A stretch of 64,000 nucleotides of DNA from Escherichia coli. Lineage in GTDB: Bacteria; Pseudomonadota; Gammaproteobacteria; Enterobacterales; Enterobacteriaceae. The stretch is from NCBI RefSeq assembly GCF_050320075.1, contig NZ_CP190021.1. One strand, given 5' to 3'. The notes under the pieces are model-generated. The model saw only the letters and a list, made by a program, of their open reading frames with translations, had not been told where the DNA came from and ran no database searches. Below are positions 3,751-18,489 of this stretch, one piece after another. The number at the start of each line of letters is the position of its first letter. The stretch's first letter is position 1. The translations under genes and the position numbers were made by a program.

Positions 3751-3927
3751 ACCAGGCATGTATATTTTACGCAGGGACACGCCGATCATGATCGTTTCAT
3801 ATCAGGGGTGGTCTGGAGGTCATGCGGCGTGTCCTCTGCACTCGCCGGAATAAGGAAGTCGCCGGCGGCTCCGCTTTTACCCGGCCATGCGGGGCATGGC
3901 CTTGTGGGGTTTCAGCTCTGTGGCCTC

Positions 3928-4190
3928 AGCGTCGTGTGCGGGCTGTGCCGTGCCTCCATCTTAGCCGGGCTGGCAGGGATGCAAGGGTACGCTTCGCCGC
4001 TGCGGTCACCCGGTCCCTCCTTCCCGTCTGCCGTGATTTTCCGGTCGTTCGTCCGCTCAGGTTTCGCGGCCTCACCCTGCAACTCCCGTCAGCCGTGTGC
4101 GTCAGGCTGCGGCTTCCCTTGCGCCCCTGCATCCCCGCCTTATCGCCCGGCTTTTATGGAGGCACGGCACCGCCCGGTGTCGCAGAACAT
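3928..4190 (+). promoter_or_regulatory. Frpo/ssi-type long imperfect hairpin (candidate single-strand DNA promoter) upstream of ardA
   Basis: GTGCCGTGCCTCCAT (3945-3959) is the exact reverse complement of ATGGAGGCACGGCAC (4156-4170), and the flanking arms pair imperfectly. It ends about 20 nt before the ardA RBS. The GC-rich 'ORFs' here have no coding character. Confidence 0.65.
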
Positions 4191-4211
4191 GTGACTATGG
4201 AGGATTCGGGA

Positions 4212-4712
4212 ATGTCTGTTGTTGCACCTGCTGTATACGTTGGAACCTGGCACAAATACAACTGTGGAAGCATCGCCGGACGCTGGTTTGACCTGACCAC
4301 GTTTGATGATGAGCGCGACTTTTTCGCCGCCTGCCGTGCTCTTCACCAGGATGAAGCCGATCCTGAACTGATGTTTCAGGATTATGAGGGATTCCCGGGG
4401 AATATGGCCTCTGAATGCCATATCAACTGGGCCTGGGTTGAAGGCTTCCGCCTGGCACGGGATGAAGGCTGCGAAGAGGCTTATCGTCTCTGGGTGGAGG
4501 ATACCGGTGAGACGGATTTTGACACCTTCCGCGATGCCTGGTGGGGCGAGGCTGACAGTGAGGAGGCTTTTGCGGTTGAGTTCGCCAGTGATACCGGCCT
4601 GCTGGCTGACGTGCCGGAGACGGTGGCGCTCTATTTTGACTATGAGGCGTATGCGCGGGATTTATTCCTGGACTCCTTCACCTTTATTGACGGTCATGTG
4701 TTCCGTCGGTGA
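4212..4712 (+). CDS. ardA: ArdA anti-restriction protein (type I R-M inhibitor, DNA mimic)
   Basis: 166 aa starting [34 protein letters not shown], which matches ColIb-P9 ArdA as I recall it. Very acidic C-terminal half. GGAGGA RBS. Confidence 0.93.
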
Positions 4713-5080
4713 TTTACTCCCCCGCTCCGGCGGGGGTATGGCCTGCCAGGCCGCCGGAAAACCCTGGCAGGCTTACGCCTGCCTGAAATGCAGGAGGGCC
4801 GCGCCTGCGGCGCTGCCCTTCCTGCCCGTCATGGTGTGAGGCATTTTTCTGTTATGTCGTTTCTGTTGTTCTGATTTCCGGAGGCGGGGACACCTTCGGC
4901 TCCCGGCTGCCTGGCGGCATCCGGTCGTCAGGCCCGACTCCGACAGGCAGCTGCTGGCGCACCCGCCAGTCTCCGCCGAACCCGCTGGCGCGGTTTCGGG
5001 CTGCCGCTACGGTCCGATGTCTGAAAAACCAGGCTTGCAGCGACCGTTCCGGTCGCGCCGCCCCTGTCGCGCCGGAAACG

Positions 5081-5420
5081 GCGCTCCCTGCACACCTGAC
5101 GGTGTGTAAGGCCACTGCGCCTGATGGCGCAGTCAACCCTTCCGCCGCCACCCCTGCGGCCTGTTTCCCGCTGTGGACTTTCCGGGGGCTGGAGTAACCA
5201 CATCCCGTTTCAGCAGTCCAGGGGAAGATATACCGTCCACAAAATTTTTAGCCATAAACCCGGCAAAAAATTTTGCGTCCGCCCCCGGACAGCTGCCCCG
5301 TGACGTGGTGACGGACGCCCCATCGGAAAGGTCCACTGCGGGGAGAAACCCCGAAGAAGTGGACGGCAGAAGGGGCTTTCGCCCCTCCGGGGAGCAACCG
5401 GTCGGCCCGGCGACCTGATT
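5081..5420 (+). repeat. Frpo/ssi-like element, copy A (about 320 bp, homologous to 7959-8300)
   Basis: Blocks shared with copy B: GCGCTCCCTGCACACCT.ACGGTGTGTAAGGCCACTGCGCCTGATGGCGCAG ... GGACTTTCCGGGGG ... CCACATCCCGTTTCAG ... CCCCGGACA.CTGCCCCGTGACGTGGTGA ... CGGAAAGGTCCACTGCGGGGA. Internal long-range complementarity (GGACTTTCCG / CGGAAAGGTCC; CAAAATTTTT / AAAAATTTTG at the apex). Ends at a strong RBS. Confidence 0.7.
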
Positions 5421-5440
5421 CAGCAGAAGGAGACGTTTTC

Positions 5441-5875
5441 ATGACAGTCAGCAGCACGATTTCCGTTTTTTGCCGCGACGGGGTGTTCCGTACCGTTTAC
5501 TGCCACCTGCACGGGGAGCCGACCTGGAACGGTCGCATCCTGCATACCCACTATGCCACCGGTCAGCAGGCCGAAGCCCTGGTTGAACACGGTGATATCC
5601 GTTGCCTCGGTCCCCGTTGCGACAAACCCGCCGGGCATACGCTTCAGAACCCGGTGGACGGTGTGACGGCTTATTACGGACGTGACAGTGGTTTCCGGAT
5701 GGACAGTGAGGCGCGTGAGTACCGTTCTTTCAGGGAGGCTATTGCCACTGAAAGCACTGAAGAGGTGCGCTTCCATTATGTGTTCATCGACGGCTACTGG
5801 AAGGTGATGTACCGCACGCCGGAAGGCTGGAAGATGAAAGCGCTCGCGCTGGCACTGCGTCGCTGTCCGAAATGA
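5441..5875 (+). CDS. hypothetical leading-region protein (144 aa)
   Basis: AAGGAG RBS 8 nt upstream. Lies immediately downstream of Frpo-like copy A. No motif recognised. Confidence 0.65.
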   Translation: MTVSSTISVFCRDGVFRTVYCHLHGEPTWNGRILHTHYATGQQAEALVEHGDIRCLGPRCDKPAGHTLQNPVDGVTAYYGRDSGFRMDSEAREYRSFREAIATESTEEVRFHYVFIDGYWKVMYRTPEGWKMKALALALRRCPK

Positions 5876-5968
5876 AAAAAAGGCAGGGCGATAAACCCTG
5901 CCTCTCTCCGCCGGCGCTTCCCCGCCAGGAAGTCCGGCATCTCAATCACTATCTATGGAGATTATGCC

Positions 5969-6235
5969 ATGAGACCATCAATTATCTTCGCAACCGCCGA
6001 GTATGTAAAGCGTCTGCGTGAAGAGTGCCTGCGGGAGAATAAACCCCTGCACCGCCATACCCGCTTCAGACGTCAGGAGCTGGCACAGGATGAGATTAAC
6101 CCGGACGTCCTGGCGATGAGCGGCCATATCGCCAGACGCTGCAGTGAGCAGAAGCGGGTGCGTATCCCCGCTATGAAAGTCAGCGAATGGGGCCACCTGC
6201 TCCGCGCGCTTGAAATTGAGCGGGTCTGCCACTGA
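5969..6235 (+). CDS. hypothetical protein (88 aa)
   Basis: GGAG RBS and a basic protein. No family recognised. Confidence 0.45.
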   Translation: MRPSIIFATAEYVKRLREECLRENKPLHRHTRFRRQELAQDEINPDVLAMSGHIARRCSEQKRVRIPAMKVSEWGHLLRALEIERVCH

Positions 6236-6299
6236 TTAACCCTTGCCGTCTGCCTGTGCAGGCGGCAGGATACGTTCAGACATCTCACCAGGAGGAACC

Positions 6300-7238
6300 G
6301 TGAGTCAGAAGAAAACCACCACGACGCCCACGCCGCATGATGCCGCGTTCCGGTCGTTCCTGGCGAATCCCGACGTCGCCAGAGATTTTCTGGAACTGCA
6401 TCTTCCGGCGGAGTACCGGCAGTTGTGCGACCTGTCCACGCTGAAGCTGGAACCCGCCACCTTTGTTGAGCCGGACCTGCATCAGTACGCCAGCGATATC
6501 CTCTGGAGTGTGAAAACCACCGGGGGTGAAGATGGCTATGTTTATACGCTCATCGAGCACCAGAGCACCGAAAATCTGTACATGCCTTTCCGCATGTTAC
6601 GTTACAGTGTGGCGGCGATGCAGAGACATCTGGAGCAGCACAAAACGTTGCCACTGGTGATTCCTGTACTGTTCTATCATGGTGAGCGCAGCCCGTACCC
6701 GTACAGCATGAACTGGCTGGACTGTTTTGAGAATCCGGCACTTGCGGCTAAAATATACACAAAGCCGTTTCCGCTGGTTGATATCACTGTCGTTGATGAC
6801 AATGAAATCATGAACCATCGCCGGATGGCCGCACTGACGCTGCTGATGAAGCATATCCGCCATCGTGACATGATGGAGCTGCTGGACAAACTCCCGCAGG
6901 TCATGGTGGAAATTTCAGACGAGCAGGTGCGTGTTCTGATTCATTACATCGTTAACGCAGGGGACTCTGTATCACCGGAATTTATGCGGGCGCTGGCTGA
7001 GCGTCTGCCGCAGCATGAGGATAAACTGATGACTATCGCAGAACGTCTTGAGCAAAAAGGTCGCCAGGAGGGCAGGATGGAAGGACGCATGGAAGGACGC
7101 ATGGAAGGACGCATGGAAGGAGCGCTTGAAAAAGCCCTGGCTATTGCGTGCCAGCTTCAGAAAATGGGGATGACGCCGGAGCAGATTAAGCAGGCTACCG
7201 GACTTTCCGATGACGAACTGAAGAAAATCACTCACTGA
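6300..7238 (+). CDS. Rpn family recombination-promoting nuclease (YhgA-like, PD-(D/E)XK); full-length 'RpnL'
   Basis: GTG at 6300 follows GGAGGA. N-terminal signature PHDAAFRSFL...DFL..HLP ... SDILWSV ... Y.L.EHQS ... MPFRMLRY ... PLVIPVLFYHG is typical of RpnA-E/YhgA-like proteins. Confidence 0.85.
   Translation: MSQKKTTTTPTPHDAAFRSFLANPDVARDFLELHLPAEYRQLCDLSTLKLEPATFVEPDLHQYASDILWSVKTTGGEDGYVYTLIEHQSTENLYMPFRMLRYSVAAMQRHLEQHKTLPLVIPVLFYHGERSPYPYSMNWLDCFENPALAAKIYTKPFPLVDITVVDDNEIMNHRRMAALTLLMKHIRHRDMMELLDKLPQVMVEISDEQVRVLIHYIVNAGDSVSPEFMRALAERLPQHEDKLMTIAERLEQKGRQEGRMEGRMEGRMEGRMEGALEKALAIACQLQKMGMTPEQIKQATGLSDDELKKITH
7029..7238 (+). CDS. predicted intragenic small protein (RpnS-type antitoxin, 69 aa) in frame within rpn
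   Basis: In-frame ATG at 7029 with GAGGA 8 nt upstream. It starts exactly where the free-standing paralog (7300-7458) starts (MTIAERL.QKG). It encompasses the EGRM repeat. Confidence 0.45.
   Translation: MTIAERLEQKGRQEGRMEGRMEGRMEGRMEGALEKALAIACQLQKMGMTPEQIKQATGLSDDELKKITH
7068..7124 (+). repeat. 12-nt tandem repeat (GAAGGACGCATG, about 4.7 units) encoding (EGRM)n
   Basis: Read directly: gagggcaggatg gaaggacgcatg gaaggacgcatg gaaggacgcatg gaaggagcg. In frame inside rpn. Confidence 0.95.
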
Positions 7239-7250
7239 GTAAACATCACA

Positions 7251-7275
7251 GCCCGGCAAAATGCCGGGCTTTTTT
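7251..7275 (+). terminator. intrinsic terminator after rpn
   Basis: GCCCGGC-aaaat-GCCGGGC followed by TTTTTT. Confidence 0.8.
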
Positions 7276-7299
7276 GTCAGCAGGAGCAGAGCAAATAGC

Positions 7300-7458
7300 A
7301 TGACGATTGCAGAACGTCTTATTCAAAAAGGCGCACTTGAAGTGGCGCGGGAAATAGCCTGCCGGCTGCGGGATATGGGCTGGACGCCGGAACGGATTCA
7401 GGAGGCAACCGGACTTTCCGGTGAAGAACTGAAAAAGCTGTTTCCTGATGAGCAGTAG
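7300..7458 (+). CDS. stand-alone RpnS-like small protein (52 aa), paralog of the Rpn C-terminal domain without the EGRM repeat
   Basis: MTIAERLIQKGALEVAREIACRLRDMGWTPERIQEATGLSGEELKKL aligns with Rpn residues MTIAERLEQKG-(EGRM)n-ALEKALAIACQLQKMGMTPEQIKQATGLSDDELKKI. GGAG lies 13 nt upstream, which is suboptimal. Confidence 0.55.
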   Translation: MTIAERLIQKGALEVAREIACRLRDMGWTPERIQEATGLSGEELKKLFPDEQ

Positions 7459-7488
7459 CCTGGCATTCAGCCAGGCTGTGAATCACGC

Positions 7489-7740
7489 TCACACATCCTC
7501 TGCCGTTTCCCCCAGTTCATTTTCCAGTCGCCTGATGATATCTGCCTTACGCATCCCCTGCATGTGAGGCAGCAGGTCACGGACTGAAAGTGCCTGGGTG
7601 GTCCTCCAGACGGTGACGTCCACCTGTTCCGCATTTTCCCAGGCGTGCCATGTTCTCTGCGTCACGCCAAATTCTCTGGCCGCTTTTTCGCGTGACCAGA
7701 GCATGCTTTTTCGCCAGATTCGCAGTTCCCAGCCGGTCAT
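7489..7740 (-). CDS. small XRE/Cro-like HTH regulator (83 aa), the only minus-strand gene between psiB and the Frpo-B copy
   Basis: HTH-like segment REKAAREFGVTQRTWHAWE. Twin palindromes lie directly upstream. Confidence 0.65.
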   Translation of the reverse strand: MTGWELRIWRKSMLWSREKAAREFGVTQRTWHAWENAEQVDVTVWRTTQALSVRDLLPHMQGMRKADIIRRLENELGETAEDV

Positions 7741-7754
7741 AAAACACCTTTGAA

Positions 7755-7842
7755 AAAGTGAAAAAACTTCACTTTATTTTATCATCACAATTGCCAAATC
7801 AGCGCGATAAATAAGTGTAAAAAAGTGAAGAAATTTCACTTT
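7755..7842. promoter_or_regulatory. two 21-bp palindromic operator-like sites AAAGTGAA-N5-TTCACTTT
   Basis: 7755-7775 (aaagtgaa aaaac ttcacttt) and 7822-7842 (aaagtgaa gaaat ttcacttt). Centres are 67 bp apart, in the AT-rich gap between the HTH gene and Frpo-like copy B. Confidence 0.7.
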
Positions 7843-7958
7843 TTTTGCTTGTAAATGTCGTGCGGTTTTCTCTGTTTTCACCTGTGCGGGAGTGGTGTGC
7901 CAGTGACCACCACATGCCATTGTTGTGCCGTCGTTTTTCTTCAGTCGCGCCGTATGCG

Positions 7959-8300
7959 GCGCTCCCTGCACACCTTACGGTGTGTAAGGCCACTGCGCCT
8001 GATGGCGCAGCTGTCTCTGCCTGTCTGCCGCCGCACTGCGGCCTGTTCTCCGCAGACGGACTTTCCGGGGGTACATACATGACCACATCCCGTTTCAGTC
8101 GTCCAGGGGGGAGATGTACCAGCCACAAAACTTTTTGCCGCAGGCGTCAAAAACTTTTGCGTCTGCCCCCGGACAACTGCCCCGTGACGTGGTGAGCGTC
8201 CCCCGTCGGAAAGGTCCACTGCGGGGAAATCCCCGAAGACCCGGACGGCAGAAGGAGCTTCGCTCCTCCGGGAAATGACCTGGCTGTCCCGGCAGTCGTG
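7959..8300 (+). repeat. Frpo/ssi-like element, copy B
   Basis: Homologous to 5081-5420 (see copy A). Ends at the AGGAG RBS of the next gene. Confidence 0.7.
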
Positions 8301-8319
8301 ACGATGAGGAGACAATGTG

Positions 8320-9168
8320 ATGAATCAGACTTTACCCACTGCTGACCTGAATACTGCCGGCACGACAGATGTTATTCCGTCTGTGGCTATCGACCGCATC
8401 ATCGCGCAGCGTAACGAAGGTATTGCACTGTTCATGCAGGCGATGGAATGCCTGGCGACAGCGCGCAAGATTCTGCTCGATGCGTCAGGTGATATTTTTC
8501 TTTACGGGTTTGAAGACTGCGTGACTGATTCCGTTCGTCGCATAGATAAACCGGAAGAAGCGAAAAGGAATATCACCCGTCTTGCCGACCGGAAAATCTG
8601 GGACCGCCTGATGACAGATACGGGCATGTACACCTTCATGAGTTCATGCCAGCGTGATGAGTGGAACAGCCAGCTGATGAGCGACACCTGTCCTGAAATC
8701 ACCCTGGACAATGTACTGGCAACATTCCGCCATCTGAATGCCTGCAAGATGCAGACATTTGAACAGGGACTGATTGATGTCTACCGGAAATTGTCATGGG
8801 ATTACAGAACCAATAATCCCTGCCGTCTGGGTAAGAAAATCATTATTGAAAACCTGCTGTACCGCTGGAGTAACGGGCGTGTGACGCTGGACTGCAGCGG
8901 ACGGGAGGCACTGGATGACCTGGTACGTCCGTTTTATCTGCTGGAGGGGCGCAACGTTCCTGACTTCAGGAACAGTATCGGGGCGCAGTATGGTGAATTT
9001 CTCGGGAACGGCGACAATGTCGGTAAGCTGTTAGAAGGGGAATATTTTACGGTGCGTGGCTACCAGAAAGGGACCGTACACATTGTCTTTAAGCGTTCTG
9101 ACCTTGTTGAAAAACTGAATGATATTATTGCACGGCATTATCCAGGTGCATTGCCGCCACGAGTCTGA
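8320..9168 (+). CDS. conserved hypothetical leading-region protein (282 aa; possibly DUF4942-like, from memory only)
   Basis: AGGAG at 8306-8310. A GTG at 8317 or ATG at 8320 could be the start. Immediately downstream of Frpo-like copy B and followed by a terminator. Confidence 0.65.
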   Translation: MNQTLPTADLNTAGTTDVIPSVAIDRIIAQRNEGIALFMQAMECLATARKILLDASGDIFLYGFEDCVTDSVRRIDKPEEAKRNITRLADRKIWDRLMTDTGMYTFMSSCQRDEWNSQLMSDTCPEITLDNVLATFRHLNACKMQTFEQGLIDVYRKLSWDYRTNNPCRLGKKIIIENLLYRWSNGRVTLDCSGREALDDLVRPFYLLEGRNVPDFRNSIGAQYGEFLGNGDNVGKLLEGEYFTVRGYQKGTVHIVFKRSDLVEKLNDIIARHYPGALPPRV

Positions 9169-9179
9169 TTAAACAGAAA

Positions 9180-9210
9180 AGCCCTGGTATTTATGCCGGG
9201 GCTTTTTTTT
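9180..9210 (+). terminator. intrinsic terminator
   Basis: AGCCCTGG-tatttatg-CCGGGGCT (one mismatch) followed by T8. Confidence 0.75.
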
Positions 9211-9253
9211 CTGTAATCATCATAATCTCAGAACACGATGTGACATTGTCACA

Positions 9254-9595
9254 TCAATTGTTGTTCATATCGATGCCATCTTTCCTGCCTGAATCTGTCT
9301 TTTTAGGTGCTGTTTTAGAGGAAGAACGGCGGGATGGTTTTTTCGATTCTGCTTCCCGAATAATGTCACGAAGTGCCTTCTCTCCTACTTCATACCCTGC
9401 ATTTTTGAGCGTGTCACGAACATCTGCCAGTGTATAACCCTTTGTCCTTACCAGGACAATAATGTCATCACGAATGGCATCAAGAAAATCACGCAATGTT
9501 TTCCGTTGAGCGGTGAGATCTGGCAATTCCGATAAAGCAGCTTTTGCCAGCTGGATGTCATCATCTGAGTAAAATTTTTTAGAAGCCATTGGCAC
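9254..9595 (-). CDS. hypothetical protein with Lys/Ser-rich basic tail (113 aa), adjacent to oriT
   Basis: Clean ORF with GGAGAG upstream of the GTG start. The C-terminus KKPSRRSSSKTAPKKTDSGRK suggests nucleic-acid binding. Function unknown. Confidence 0.55.
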   Translation of the reverse strand: MPMASKKFYSDDDIQLAKAALSELPDLTAQRKTLRDFLDAIRDDIIVLVRTKGYTLADVRDTLKNAGYEVGEKALRDIIREAESKKPSRRSSSKTAPKKTDSGRKDGIDMNNN

Positions 9596-9738
9596 TTTCT
9601 CTCCGTTTCATGTTGAAGTCTGATTTTATCATCAAAAACTGACTCCTGGCAGGGCTGCGCCCTGCCTCTGCCGTCTGCATAAGACTATGATGCACAAAAA
9701 TAACAGGCTATAATGGCCTGAAAAACGGGACAGGATGT

Positions 9739-9800
9739 GCAATTGTATAACCGCGCACGCGCGATTATACAATTGCCTCCTGGTCAGGGCTTCGCCCCGA
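9739..9800. other. oriT: oriT core (17-bp inverted repeat plus adjacent nick region)
   Basis: GCAATTGTATAACCGCG (9739-9755) versus CGCGATTATACAATTGC (9760-9776) is a 17-bp inverted repeat with one mismatch, followed by CTCCTGGTCAGGGC directly upstream of nikA. This matches the published description of R64 oriT as I recall it. The exact nick position is not determinable here. Confidence 0.75.
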
Positions 9801-9821
9801 CACCCCAGTAAGGAGCTGACC

Positions 9822-10154
9822 GTGAGTGATAAACGTCAAAGAAGTGGTAGTGAAAGACGGCAAAAGACGATCCTGAGAGCGGTCCGGTTCTCACCGGATG
9901 AGGATGAAACTATCTGTAAGAATGCTGAAGATTCCGGACTTACTGTATCTGCTTACATCCGAAATGCAGCACTGAATAAGCGAATTAACTCCCGTACAGA
10001 TGATGCTTTTCTGAAGGAGTTAATGAGACTGGGAAGGATGCAGAAGCATCTGTTTGTTCAGGGAAAAAGAACCGGTGACAAGGAATACGCAGAAGTGCTT
10101 GTTGCCATAACCGAACTTACAAATACATTGCGTAAACAGTTAATGGAAGGTTGA
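9822..10154 (+). CDS. nikA: NikA relaxosome accessory protein (RHH, 110 aa)
   Basis: GTG start after TAAGGAG. 110 aa equals the R64 NikA length. Position is between oriT and nikB. Confidence 0.9.
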   Translation: MSDKRQRSGSERRQKTILRAVRFSPDEDETICKNAEDSGLTVSAYIRNAALNKRINSRTDDAFLKELMRLGRMQKHLFVQGKRTGDKEYAEVLVAITELTNTLRKQLMEG

Positions 10155-10164
10155 GGATTCTCCG

Positions 10165-12864
10165 GTGAATGCAGTCATTCCGAAAAAGAGAAGGGACGGC
10201 AAGTCTTCGTTCGAAGACCTGGTATCCTACGTCTCTGTCCGGGATGACATGACCGATGAGGAACTGGATTTATCTTCTTCTTCGCAGGCTGAACAACCGC
10301 ACCGAAGCCGTTTCAGTCGCCTTGTTGATTATGCGACACGTCTTCGAAATGAGTCATTCGTGGCGCTGGTTGATGTCATGAAGGACGGCTGCGAATGGGT
10401 CAACTTTTATGGTGTCACCTGCTTTCATAACTGTACTTCTCTTGAAACTGCCGCTGCAGATATGGAGTACATTGCCCGGCAGGCACACTATGCAAAAGAT
10501 GACACTGACCCTGTTTTTCACTACATCCTTTCCTGGCAGTCACATGAAAGCCCGCGTCCGGAACAGATTTATGACAGTGTACGTCATACGCTGAAATCAC
10601 TCGGCCTTGCCGACCATCAGTATGTCTCTGCCGTGCATACTGATACAGATAATCTGCACGTCCATGTGGCTGTTAACCGGGTACACCCTGAAACGGGTTA
10701 TCTGAACCGGTTATCATGGAGTCAGGAAAAACTCAGTCGTGCCTGCCGTGAGCTTGAACTGAAGCATGGTTTTGCTCCGGATAACGGTTGCTGGGTCCAT
10801 GCGCCGGGAAATCGTATCGTTCGCAAAACTGCCGTTGAACGTGATCGCCAGAACGCCTGGACACGCGGAAAAAAACAAACTTTTCGTGAGTATGTTGCGC
10901 AGACAGCGGTCGCTGGTTTACGCAGTGAACCTGTACATGACTGGTTATCCCTGCATCGTCGTCTTGCGGAAGATGGTCTGTACCTGTCTCAGATGGACGG
11001 AAAATTTCTGGTGATGGATGGCTGGGATCGCAACAGGGAAGGTGTACAGCTTGACTCGTTTGGTCCCTCCTGGTGTGCAGAAAAACTCATGAAAAAAATG
11101 GGTGACTACACGCCAGTGCCAAAAGACATTTTCAGCCAGGTGGAAGCACCAGGACGCTATAATCCGGACTTCATTGCAGCTGATGTTCGCCCGGAAAAAA
11201 TCGCTGAAACAGAAAGTCTGCAGCAGTATGCCTGTCGTCATCTTGGAGAACGTCTGCCGGAAATGGCACGGGAAGGACGGCTGGAAAACTGCCTGGCTAT
11301 TCACCGCACACTGGCTGAAGCGGGATTATGGATGCGTGTTCAGCATGGTCACCTGGTTATCTGTGACGGTTATGATCATAACCAGACTCCCGTTCGTGCT
11401 GACAGCGTATGGTCACTGCTGACGCTCGACAATGTGAATCAACTCGATGGTGGCTGGCAGCCTGTACCAACAGATATTTTCCGCCAGGTTACGCCAACAG
11501 AACGCTTCCGTGGTCGTCGTATGGAGAGCTGTCCTGCGACCGATAAAGAATGGCACCGTATGCGTACAGGTACGGGGCCGCAGGGGGCTATCAAACGCGA
11601 ACTGTTTTCTGACAAAGAAAGTCTGTGGGGATACAGCATCAGCCATTGTAGCCCTCAGATTGAAGAAATGATCACACAGGGTGAGTTTACCTGGCAGCGT
11701 TGTCATGAGTTGTTTGCACAACAGGGACTGATGCTACAGAAACAACATCACGGGCTTGTTGTCGTTGATGCTTTTAATCATGAGCAAACGCCGGTGAAAG
11801 CCAGCAGCATTCATCCTGATCTGACACTGGGGCGTGCGGAGCCACAGGCCGGACCTTTTGTGAGTGCTCCAGCAGATTTGTTTGACAGGGTGCAACCTGA
11901 AAATCGCTATAACCCGGAGCTGGCTGTCAGTGACAGGTACGGGGTCAGCAGTAAACGTGACCCAATGCTGCGCCGGCAGCGACGTGAAGCCAGGGCTGAG
12001 GCCCGTGCTGACCTGCGTGCCCGCTATCTGGCATGGCGTGAACAATGGCGTAAACCGGATCTGCGTTATGGGGAACGTTGTCGGGAAATTCATCAGGCAT
12101 GCCGTCTGCGGAAGTCACACATTCGTGCGCAGTACGATGATCCGGCATTACGTAAGCTGCATTATCACATTGCAGAAGTTCAGCGAATGCAGGCATTGAT
12201 CAGGCTGAAAGAAGACATCAGGGATGAGCGACAGAAACTTATTGCTGACGGGAAATGGTATCCACCCTCTTACCGTCAGTGGGTCGAAATTCAGGCTGCT
12301 CAGGGAGACAGGGCTGCTGTATCGCAGTTGAGAGGCTGGGATTATCGCGATCGCCGTAAAGACAAGTCACGCACAACGACGACAGACCGCTGTGTCGTGC
12401 TTTGTGAACCGGGCGGAACGCCGGTATACGGTAATACCGGTGATCTCGAGGCCCGTCTGCAGAAGAACGGGAGTGTTCGTTTCCGTGACCGTCGGACGGG
12501 AGAGTTTGTCTGTACGGATTATGGTGACAGAGTTGTTTTCCGTAATCACCATGACCGCAATGCGCTGGCAGATAAACTGGATTTGATTGCACCGGTATTA
12601 TTCGGGCGTGATCCACGCATGGGGTTTGAACCAGAAGGAAACGACAAACAATTTAACCAGGTCTTTGCTGAAATGGTTGCCTGGCATAATGTGACAGGCC
12701 GTACCGGTCACGAAGACTACAGGATTACGCGACCGGACGTGGATCATCACCGTGAAGGAAGTGAACGCTACTACCGCGATTATATCGCGGCGAACAGCAA
12801 CGATGACGCATCACTGCCTCCGCCGGAGCAGGATAAACGCTGGGAACCGCCTTCTCCAGGTTAA
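10165..12864 (+). CDS. nikB: NikB relaxase (MOBP-type, 899 aa)
   Basis: 899 aa equals R64 NikB. The relaxase histidine motif region is HTDTDNLHVHVAVNRV. Confidence 0.92.
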   Translation: MNAVIPKKRRDGKSSFEDLVSYVSVRDDMTDEELDLSSSSQAEQPHRSRFSRLVDYATRLRNESFVALVDVMKDGCEWVNFYGVTCFHNCTSLETAAADMEYIARQAHYAKDDTDPVFHYILSWQSHESPRPEQIYDSVRHTLKSLGLADHQYVSAVHTDTDNLHVHVAVNRVHPETGYLNRLSWSQEKLSRACRELELKHGFAPDNGCWVHAPGNRIVRKTAVERDRQNAWTRGKKQTFREYVAQTAVAGLRSEPVHDWLSLHRRLAEDGLYLSQMDGKFLVMDGWDRNREGVQLDSFGPSWCAEKLMKKMGDYTPVPKDIFSQVEAPGRYNPDFIAADVRPEKIAETESLQQYACRHLGERLPEMAREGRLENCLAIHRTLAEAGLWMRVQHGHLVICDGYDHNQTPVRADSVWSLLTLDNVNQLDGGWQPVPTDIFRQVTPTERFRGRRMESCPATDKEWHRMRTGTGPQGAIKRELFSDKESLWGYSISHCSPQIEEMITQGEFTWQRCHELFAQQGLMLQKQHHGLVVVDAFNHEQTPVKASSIHPDLTLGRAEPQAGPFVSAPADLFDRVQPENRYNPELAVSDRYGVSSKRDPMLRRQRREARAEARADLRARYLAWREQWRKPDLRYGERCREIHQACRLRKSHIRAQYDDPALRKLHYHIAEVQRMQALIRLKEDIRDERQKLIADGKWYPPSYRQWVEIQAAQGDRAAVSQLRGWDYRDRRKDKSRTTTTDRCVVLCEPGGTPVYGNTGDLEARLQKNGSVRFRDRRTGEFVCTDYGDRVVFRNHHDRNALADKLDLIAPVLFGRDPRMGFEPEGNDKQFNQVFAEMVAWHNVTGRTGHEDYRITRPDVDHHREGSERYYRDYIAANSNDDASLPPPEQDKRWEPPSPG

Positions 12865-17482: not shown

Positions 17483-17654
17483 GACAAAGTCTCCATTTCT
17501 GGAATTTAAATCAAACGGAAAGGTTAAAAATTTATTTGCAGGCGATAAGAGCTAACCAGAGGAATTAGCCGTGTGATAAAAGGATTGTTGCAGATACGAA
17601 AGTCGTTAGAATAGCTGCGGGCGCTTGAGGCTGTATGCCGAAAGCGTTTTGTGG

Positions 17655-17722
17655 ACGGTATACAGCAGAAAGCCCCTGGAGATTTTTTTATCAATCAACC
17701 AAGGGCTCTACTGTAATGCCTA
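17655..17722 (-). ncRNA. pndB: PndB (Sok-like) antisense RNA, approximate bounds
   Basis: Minus-strand TTGCCT-17-TACTAT/TATAAT promoter-like sequence at about 17760-17728. The predicted transcript covers the pndC start (17716) and contains the hairpin AGCCCTTGG...CCAGGGGCT followed by TTTCT. Confidence 0.5.
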
Positions 17723-17919
17723 GACAACATTATAGTAGCCCGATAACCGCCGTAAGGCAATGGAGGGGCTATGATGCCACAGCGAACGTTTTTAATGATG
17801 TTAATCGTCATCTGTGTGACGATTCTGTGTTTTGTCTGGATGGTGAGGGATTCGCTTTGCGGACTCCGGCTCCAGCAGGGAAACACAGTGCTTGTGGCAA
17901 CGTTAGCCTACGAAGTTAA
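17716..17919 (+). CDS. pndC: PndC (Mok-like overlapping reading frame)
   Basis: The frame overlaps pndA and ends 7 nt before the pndA stop. The ATG at 17716 lies inside the predicted antisense target. The track ORF starts earlier, at 17635. Confidence 0.55.
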   Translation: MPRQHYSSPITAVRQWRGYDATANVFNDVNRHLCDDSVFCLDGEGFALRTPAPAGKHSACGNVSLRS

Positions 17920-18249: not shown

Positions 18250-18402
18250 CGGATTTTCTCTCTGTATTTATGGGTAGTTATCGAACTGAATGTGCCAGTT
18301 TTTTCAGGAGACGGCAAAGTTGAGATGGTTGGTTCTGATTCAAAGCATGAGTTTCCCCGGTGTGACGGGCATGTCGGGCGGATTTTGAGAAACAACAGAT
18401 GT

Positions 18403-18433
18403 AAAAAAACCGACTGGTGAGGTCGGTTTTTTT
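18403..18433. terminator. perfect bidirectional intrinsic terminator
   Basis: AAAAAAACCGAC-tggtgag-GTCGGTTTTTTT. Confidence 0.85.
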
Positions 18434-18456
18434 ACTGTTCCGTTACAGAGTGGGTG

Positions 18457-18489
18457 GCTCTGGTCGGAAAAGAACTGTCTATAACTGAC
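18457..18489. repeat. 33-bp direct repeat, copy 1
   Basis: gctctggtcggaAaagaactgtctataactgac. Confidence 0.95.

Follow-up and report, generated by a model that had tools for sequence, protein, structure and literature searches.

ygcA of IncI-type plasmids: a conserved leading-region gene behind an Frpo/ssi-like hairpin and a candidate establishment or counter-defence gene

The window analysed here is a 64,000-nucleotide stretch of Escherichia coli DNA (NCBI RefSeq assembly GCF_050320075.1, contig NZ_CP190021.1), which is called as an IncI-type (I-complex) conjugative plasmid from nikA, the 899-residue relaxase gene nikB and a repZ pseudoknot. Its leading region spans window coordinates 1 to about 9600, with oriT near 9.6–9.7 kb. 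The plus-strand genes run toward oriT in the order ParB-like gene, psiB, psiA, a 209-residue gene, ardA, ygcA, an 88-residue gene, an Rpn gene and a DUF4942 gene, followed by nikA and nikB. Our subject is ygcA, a leading-region gene placed between ardA and oriT. Because the plus-strand leading-region genes point at oriT and nikA, the minus strand is taken to be the transferred strand, and it is the template of ygcA. In Frpo/ssi systems the transferred strand is likewise the template of leading-region genes. The features at the locus are as follows.

4212–4712, plus strand: ardA, 166 residues, ATG at 4212
5066–5380, minus strand: Frpo/ssi-like class-1 single-strand promoter hairpin, repeat copy A, with the main hairpin at about 5141–5374 and repeat families D3, D5, D6, D7 and D9
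5427–5432, plus strand: Shine–Dalgarno sequence AAGGAG, read from the sequence, with an 8-nucleotide spacer to the ygcA start codon
5441–5875, plus strand: ygcA coding sequence, 144 residues, from an open reading frame call, with ATG at 5441 and TGA at 5873–5875
5882–5902: stem-loop GGCAGGG-N7-CCCTGCC, just after the ygcA stop codon and conserved in four plasmid lineages
5969–6235, plus strand: 88-residue gene of the YdaB/YdfB/YgdA family, in the same presumed operon as ygcA

An original prediction, made from the letters of this stretch, had described ygcA as an uncharacterised reading frame of 144 residues with an AAGGAG ribosome-binding site, and the positions above confirm this. The same gene has been called YdfA, Hp16 of pESBL (O3K_25917) and pMS7163B_00820 ('820'); the name ygcA comes from one record, and YdfA from a phage annotation of the same protein. 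The window protein is identical to pMS7163B_00820 at 143 of 144 residues. RefSeq lists the product as a hypothetical protein (WP_000218863), identical in RefSeq plasmids, and literature searches with WP_000218863, ygcA and its motif strings found no functional study.

ygcA is a genuine conserved gene of IncI-type resistance plasmids. It is present in 2016 PLSDB plasmids, all belonging to the I-complex and with no match below 60% identity, and in 1308 of 5426 complete E. coli genomes (24%), where it occupies 1385 plasmid and 15 chromosomal places. The ygcA stretch of the window is identical in hundreds of E. coli and Salmonella plasmids, and the gene is part of the IncK2 core genome. It is also under purifying selection, with a ratio of non-synonymous to synonymous substitution rates (dN/dS) of 0.195 at a dS of 0.56 between the window gene and an 82%-identical copy at locus L072. 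A copy at locus L008 (positions 8001–8435; GCA_964257785.1) was excluded from this comparison; it has a compensated frameshift, and many genes of its assembly are split. The double frameshift in that copy affects residues 11–45, and the adjoining parB and psiA are each split into two reading frames; all of this is probably due to long-read indel errors and not to pseudogenes.

The divergent form of ygcA (82% amino acid identity) is found at L072 (positions 6001–7798) and at L073 together with the 88-residue gene and rpn, as a trio between fragments of an ISL3 transposase. The trio adjoins PAPS-reductase/DUF3440 and CaiF/GrlA-like genes, and this setting indicates that the module has moved outside a standard leading region.

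Directly upstream of ygcA lies an Frpo/ssi-homologous hairpin, which places the gene among those with a predicted class 1 promoter. The hairpin is about 230 nucleotides long and ends about 65 nucleotides before ygcA. Repeat copy A (5066–5351) matches copy B (7944–8234), which precedes the DUF4942 gene, and a third copy lies upstream of ssb in a sister plasmid, with a mean identity of 81% between copy A and these two. The hairpin core is also found in IncF-type plasmids at about 80% identity, in two to four places per record. Folded as single-stranded DNA (ssDNA), the minus strand from 5040 to 5440 gives a long imperfect hairpin of −119.5 kcal/mol (z = −8.4; none of 100 shuffles is as good), and the minus strand of copy B folds in the same way (z = −8.4). 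The repeat comparison and the fold bear out the original placing of ygcA immediately behind an Frpo-like copy A. The plus strand before ygcA was searched for a sigma-70-type duplex promoter, and none was found.

PMC12672017 reports induction of six leading-region operons of the IncI1 plasmid pESBL, by up to about 500-fold in the first 15 min after transfer, each of them behind a hairpin with a start mapped by 5′ rapid amplification of cDNA ends. There, the Frpo-like elements ssi1–3 are class 1 ssDNA promoters, and the ardA and klcA hairpins are class 2. Judged by its sequence, copy A is one of ssi1–3; its presumed promoter function is taken from that paper.

ygcA had been said to sit in the slot that ardA occupies relative to a hairpin, and the two genes do share the arrangement of hairpin, Shine–Dalgarno sequence, 8 nucleotides and ATG. 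In ardA, hairpin arms at 3939–3970 and 4145–4176 (z = −5.4) are followed by GGAGG, 8 nucleotides and the start codon. The ardA hairpin is, however, unrelated in sequence to copy A and was placed in a different promoter class in PMC12672017. The 296-residue reading frame of the program-made list (3822–4712, plus strand) is ardA extended upstream through its own class-2 ssDNA hairpin, and the extension is spurious.

The original prediction recognised no motif in the protein. In agreement with this, no match was found when YgcA and canonical members of its family were scanned against Pfam, NCBIfam and PADLOC, when PDB sequences were searched with a single sequence and with a profile, or when YgcA was compared with the Pfam LPD and polyvalent-protein domains. 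YgcA does match two phage families of unknown function, phrog_1987 (E = 5.3e-21, residues 1–126) and phrog_23089 (E = 5e-19), and this significant profile match across an N-terminal domain of about 125 residues makes it a member of a phrog_1987/phrog_23089-like family. A phmmer search returned 1981 representatives of 50% identity clusters at E ≤ 1e-3, and 258 at E ≤ 1e-10. Nearly all members are 120–160 residues long and have a match that begins at residue 1–5, and the YgcA-like domain is always N-terminal.

Relatives of YgcA occur only in invading DNA, that is, in large phages, conjugative elements of Firmicutes and prophage-like regions. Seventy phage records carry a homologue, including GAP32, Serratia BF, Erwinia jumbo phages, KVP40-like vibriophages and cyanophage S-PM2, as do at least 565 IMG/VR contigs. 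A genome scan with a nine-sequence alignment gave 63 bacterial-genome loci, from Serratia, Erwinia and Mixta, from many metagenome-assembled genomes (MAGs) of Clostridia, Christensenellales and Bacilli, from Planctomycetes, and from one archaeal MAG. The genes around them are of kinds typical for a conjugative element: type IV secretion ATPases resembling VirB4/TraG, orphan N6/N4 and C5 methylases, DUF1281_C and DUF3846/3848 proteins, pentapeptide proteins, SSB and a Toprim primase.

In two loci from Christensenella and Clostridia MAGs (L031, positions 5977–9573, and L032), the YgcA-like domain forms the N terminus of a 1198-residue polyvalent protein whose domains are, in order, YgcA-like, ArdC-N, zincin MPTase, AAA_28 and NrS-1 polymerase HBD. 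In this N-terminal position of an ArdC-N/MPTase/AAA_28 protein, the domain behaves like a module of a counter-defence protein. Other fusions join it to DUF3848 or to WYL_2. The WYL_2, DUF3848 and ArdC-N/MPTase fusions indicate a setting of conflict but no particular chemistry.

Modelling with AlphaFold, which had been suggested in the original prediction, gave a confident α/β fold (AlphaFold2; 96-sequence alignment; predicted local distance difference test score 94.6, predicted template modelling score 0.90), and a comparison of the model with solved structures found no relative. Thirteen residues are nearly invariant in the family (T3, S5, Y20, H22, D24, Y26, S54, H66, R81, D82, R83, Y113 and W120). 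All 13 are kept in 166 of 217 distant full-length members, and only 8 of these members differ at three or more. Such invariance of polar residues, at an overall identity of 25–35%, is what a catalytic or ligand pocket typically shows and suggests that the family has one.

YgcA itself keeps 8 of the 13 signature residues, in the pattern VSYHHERHRDSYW, including the core Y20, H22, H66, R81, D82, Y113 and W120. The remaining five are replaced (T3 by V, D24 by H, Y26 by E, S54 by R and R83 by S), and the L072 copy carries the same five substitutions. A protein 53% identical to YgcA is intermediate between it and the family consensus. The isoelectric point of YgcA is 8.3, against a family median of 5.1. 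By homology YgcA is a member of the family, but evidently a derived and remodelled one.

These residues also bear on whether YgcA is a Cys/His metal-binding (zinc) protein for which the metal is central to function, which would be compatible with the establishment or counter-defence role favoured below. Four Cys and six His fall within residues 1–66. In the original list C11, C21, H22 and H24 are correct, whereas H36, H38, C56 and C61 are each off by one and are in fact H35, H37, C55 and C60; H50, H66, H111 and C142 were absent from it. H22 and H66 are invariant in the family and the invariant D24 is His in YgcA, so that a site formed by His22, His24 and His66 is conceivable, and we regard it as possible from the residue pattern. 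As first proposed, through the listed Cys and His residues, metal binding finds no support. C11, C55 and C60 vary outside the close subfamily, only C21 (79%), H22 (100%) and H66 (98%) are features of the family, a typical member has about two Cys, and no set of at least three or four zinc ligands is conserved. The library scans of YgcA gave no match to a zinc-finger or metalloenzyme family. We consider a metal-centred function quite unlikely.

Downstream, the 88-residue reading frame (5969–6232) is identical to pMS7163B_00810 at 86 of 88 residues, and scans of this protein against Pfam, NCBIfam and PADLOC gave no match. Induction of the pMS7163B gene '810' causes a severe growth defect (PMC10286972), and the YdaB/YdfB/YgdA family is the largest leading-region family of Samuel et al. 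2024. An identification of ygcA itself with the toxic gene '810' was tried and rejected, as the coordinates make '810' the 88-residue neighbour and ygcA '820'.

The toxicity of this neighbour raises the possibility that ygcA is half of a two-gene module and modulates or neutralises the 88-residue protein in the manner of an antidote or chaperone. The two genes stand side by side in the same orientation, downstream of a single presumed ssDNA promoter, and the trio of ygcA, the 88-residue gene and rpn is kept in the divergent copy between insertion sequence remnants. The 88-residue family is, however, about twice as common in leading regions (4739 members in family 1, compared with 2203 in the 'PndC' family), ygcA is absent from most of its occurrences, and a homologue of it is found in none of the 63 genomic and 6 phage loci searched (L002–L005 and L009–L071). 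Insertions in ygcA are tolerated and slightly enriched in the transposon-directed insertion-site sequencing (TraDIS) of pMS7163B (log2 fold change +1.3 for 820), and 820 is not among the genes needed for maintenance of that plasmid. A 93-nucleotide gap with a hairpin separates the two genes, so they are not translationally coupled. Taken with the adjacency and the toxicity, these observations leave an antidote or chaperone role very improbable.

The 93-nucleotide spacer is more conserved than the flanking coding DNA, at 89% between the window and L072 against 76% for the start of the 88-residue gene. On the minus strand there is a sigma-70-like promoter, TTTACA-17-GATAAT, at 6009–5981 (10/12), with hexamers that are unchanged in four lineages. 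Since a run of seven T (5881–5875) follows the 5882–5902 stem-loop on the minus strand, the stem-loop is read as an intrinsic terminator of that strand. Promoter (6009–5981) and hairpin/T7 terminator (5902–5875) together predict an antisense RNA of about 100 nucleotides, which would cover the Shine–Dalgarno sequence and ATG of the 88-residue gene and would have the stem-loop as its 3′ hairpin (fold z = −4.9). The candidate RNA has no match in Rfam. Such a brake, working on an early gene that is toxic but only from duplex DNA, would agree with the toxicity that has been published.

Many GenBank and UniProt entries name the ygcA product 'post-segregation killing protein PndC', which would make it part of a hok/sok-type system. 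These database labels are all that speaks for such a role. The true pnd locus lies elsewhere in the window, at 17.6–17.9 kb:

17619–17776: sok RNA, Rfam match of 134 bits
17771–17926: pndA, 51-residue Hok-like peptide

The pESBL transposon sequencing (TnSeq) paper places PndC and PndA beyond trbA, a search of 5.0–6.3 kb found neither a Hok-like reading frame nor a sok match, and RefSeq now carries the ygcA product as hypothetical. The position of the pnd locus refutes the identification of ygcA with PndC, to which we give next to no credence, and it means that 'PndC' on ygcA is a propagated misannotation. Samuel et al. 2024 list a family 23 ('PndC, Hok/Sok TA related') of 2203 reading frames among the top leading-region families, at a median position of 7 from oriT, between the YdfB/YgdA family (position 6) and ArdA (position 8). 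We infer that family 23 is the ygcA family, in the same gene order as in the window, and that the mislabel has been carried into that table. The correction matters for surveys that count toxin–antitoxin genes in leading regions.

In the favoured reading, ygcA is expressed zygotically and its product is an effector of establishment or counter-defence. A remodelled member of a conflict-associated family, the protein would probably work through binding. We put the probability of this reading at roughly one half. YgcA, a small soluble α/β protein, would most likely be made in the recipient within the first minutes after conjugative entry. The transferred single strand would fold into the Frpo/ssi-type hairpin and this would serve as the promoter, with the strong Shine–Dalgarno sequence giving efficient translation. 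We propose that expression would come as a short burst because the promoter is lost on synthesis of the complementary strand. As five signature residues are replaced and the protein has turned basic, YgcA would act by binding a target in the recipient, a host component for which it would be an inhibitor or decoy (a defence or DNA-processing factor), and would not carry out the ancestral chemistry. The layout of the locus, its conservation, the distribution of the family, the novelty of the fold and the dispensability of the gene in laboratory matings are shown by the data, whereas we infer the timing of ygcA expression itself, as well as any anti-defence role or target.

By guilt by association, the original prediction had made ygcA a candidate anti-defence or establishment factor. 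The class 1 hairpin, the relatives in invading DNA and the ArdC-N fusion strengthen that association, but several observations weigh against it. The pESBL TnSeq screen classes Hp16 as not required for transfer, and the tolerance of insertions in pMS7163B makes the gene dispensable in a second screen, both screens having used K-12-type or laboratory recipients without a relevant defence panel. The available text of PMC12672017 does not name Hp16 among the induced pESBL genes. Comparison with known anti-restriction and anti-defence families (ArdA, ArdB/KlcA, ArdC, Ocr and others) found no sequence or fold match to YgcA. In phages, most neighbours of homologues are small genes without annotation, 86% of the neighbours lie on the same strand, and a census of them found no recurrent partner, so that the association there is generic. 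That five signature residues have been lost might also be a sign of a decaying or neutral function, although purifying selection argues otherwise.

A different role in the recipient would be to assist the nucleic-acid metabolism of the entering strand, in repair, priming or conversion from single to double strand, like ssb and not in counter-defence; we regard this as unlikely. We also entertain, as a tentative and rather doubtful extension of the establishment or counter-defence reading, that the YgcA-like domain is a hitherto unrecognised module of counter-defence whose fold is new and which jumbo and T4-like phages, integrative and conjugative elements (ICEs) of Firmicutes and IncI plasmids have in common. 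The ancestral form might be an enzyme or a sponge for a small immune signal, built around the invariant T/S/H/D/H/R/D/R pocket, and the IncI form a basic, non-catalytic inhibitor made in the ssDNA-promoter burst. It would perhaps work together with the toxic 88-residue gene, which might itself be held in check by the duplex-only antisense RNA.

About one-quarter of complete E. coli genomes carry ygcA, on IncI/K/B/O plasmids, by which extended-spectrum β-lactamase genes are spread. In a new host it is probably one of the earliest plasmid genes to be expressed, but no function is assigned to it. If YgcA does block a host defence or reprogram the recipient, it would help to explain plasmid host range and would offer a target for limiting the spread of resistance. 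Its family, which numbers thousands of proteins from phages and ICEs and combines a confident model lacking a solved relative with an enzyme-like set of invariant residues, would add a new member to the known counter-defence domains.

Several further features of the window were recorded. The Rpn-family gene (6243–7238) contains a 12-nucleotide tandem repeat at 7057–7121 that encodes a run of MEGR repeats, and its C-terminal part is duplicated as a separate 65-residue reading frame at 7261–7458 (repeats D1 and D8). An AT-rich inverted repeat at 7753–7844, with 26-nucleotide arms that are 85% complementary and 40 nucleotides apart, sits just upstream of a minus-strand helix–turn–helix regulator gene (7489–7740) and may be an operator or promoter region. 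The features used to call the plasmid, and two Rfam matches that score above the gathering threshold, are:

9735–10154, plus strand: nikA
10165–12864: nikB, 899-residue relaxase
18401–18488, minus strand: AgrB antisense RNA, 53.7 bits
62945–63032, minus strand: C4 antisense RNA, 77.5 bits
63885–64000: repZ pseudoknot

Among known systems, ArdA of the same plasmid is a close parallel in layout. Both are leading-region genes on the same strand with a long ssDNA hairpin, a Shine–Dalgarno sequence, 8 nucleotides and an ATG, and both are dispensable in laboratory matings; ArdA is zygotically induced according to the literature. They differ in hairpin class (class 2 for ardA, class 1 for ygcA), the proteins are without similarity in sequence or fold, and ArdA is an acidic DNA mimic whereas YgcA is basic. 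The Frpo-driven early genes of F and the ssi-driven genes of ColIb-P9 and pESBL (ssb, psiB, ygeA and others) have a promoter element homologous to that of ygcA and the same position and orientation relative to oriT, whereas the YgcA protein is unrelated to SSB, PsiB and PsiA. With ArdC-type polyvalent proteins, YgcA has in common that a YgcA-like domain forms the N terminus of one of them (L031 and L032), the difference being that YgcA is a stand-alone single domain. The phrog_1987 and phrog_23089 proteins are direct sequence homologues, and the predicted fold of YgcA is the same as that of BFVD models from Yersinia phage fHe-Yen9-04 and Cronobacter phage GAP32. The phage proteins are acidic and carry the full 13-residue signature, whereas the plasmid protein is basic and carries five substitutions.
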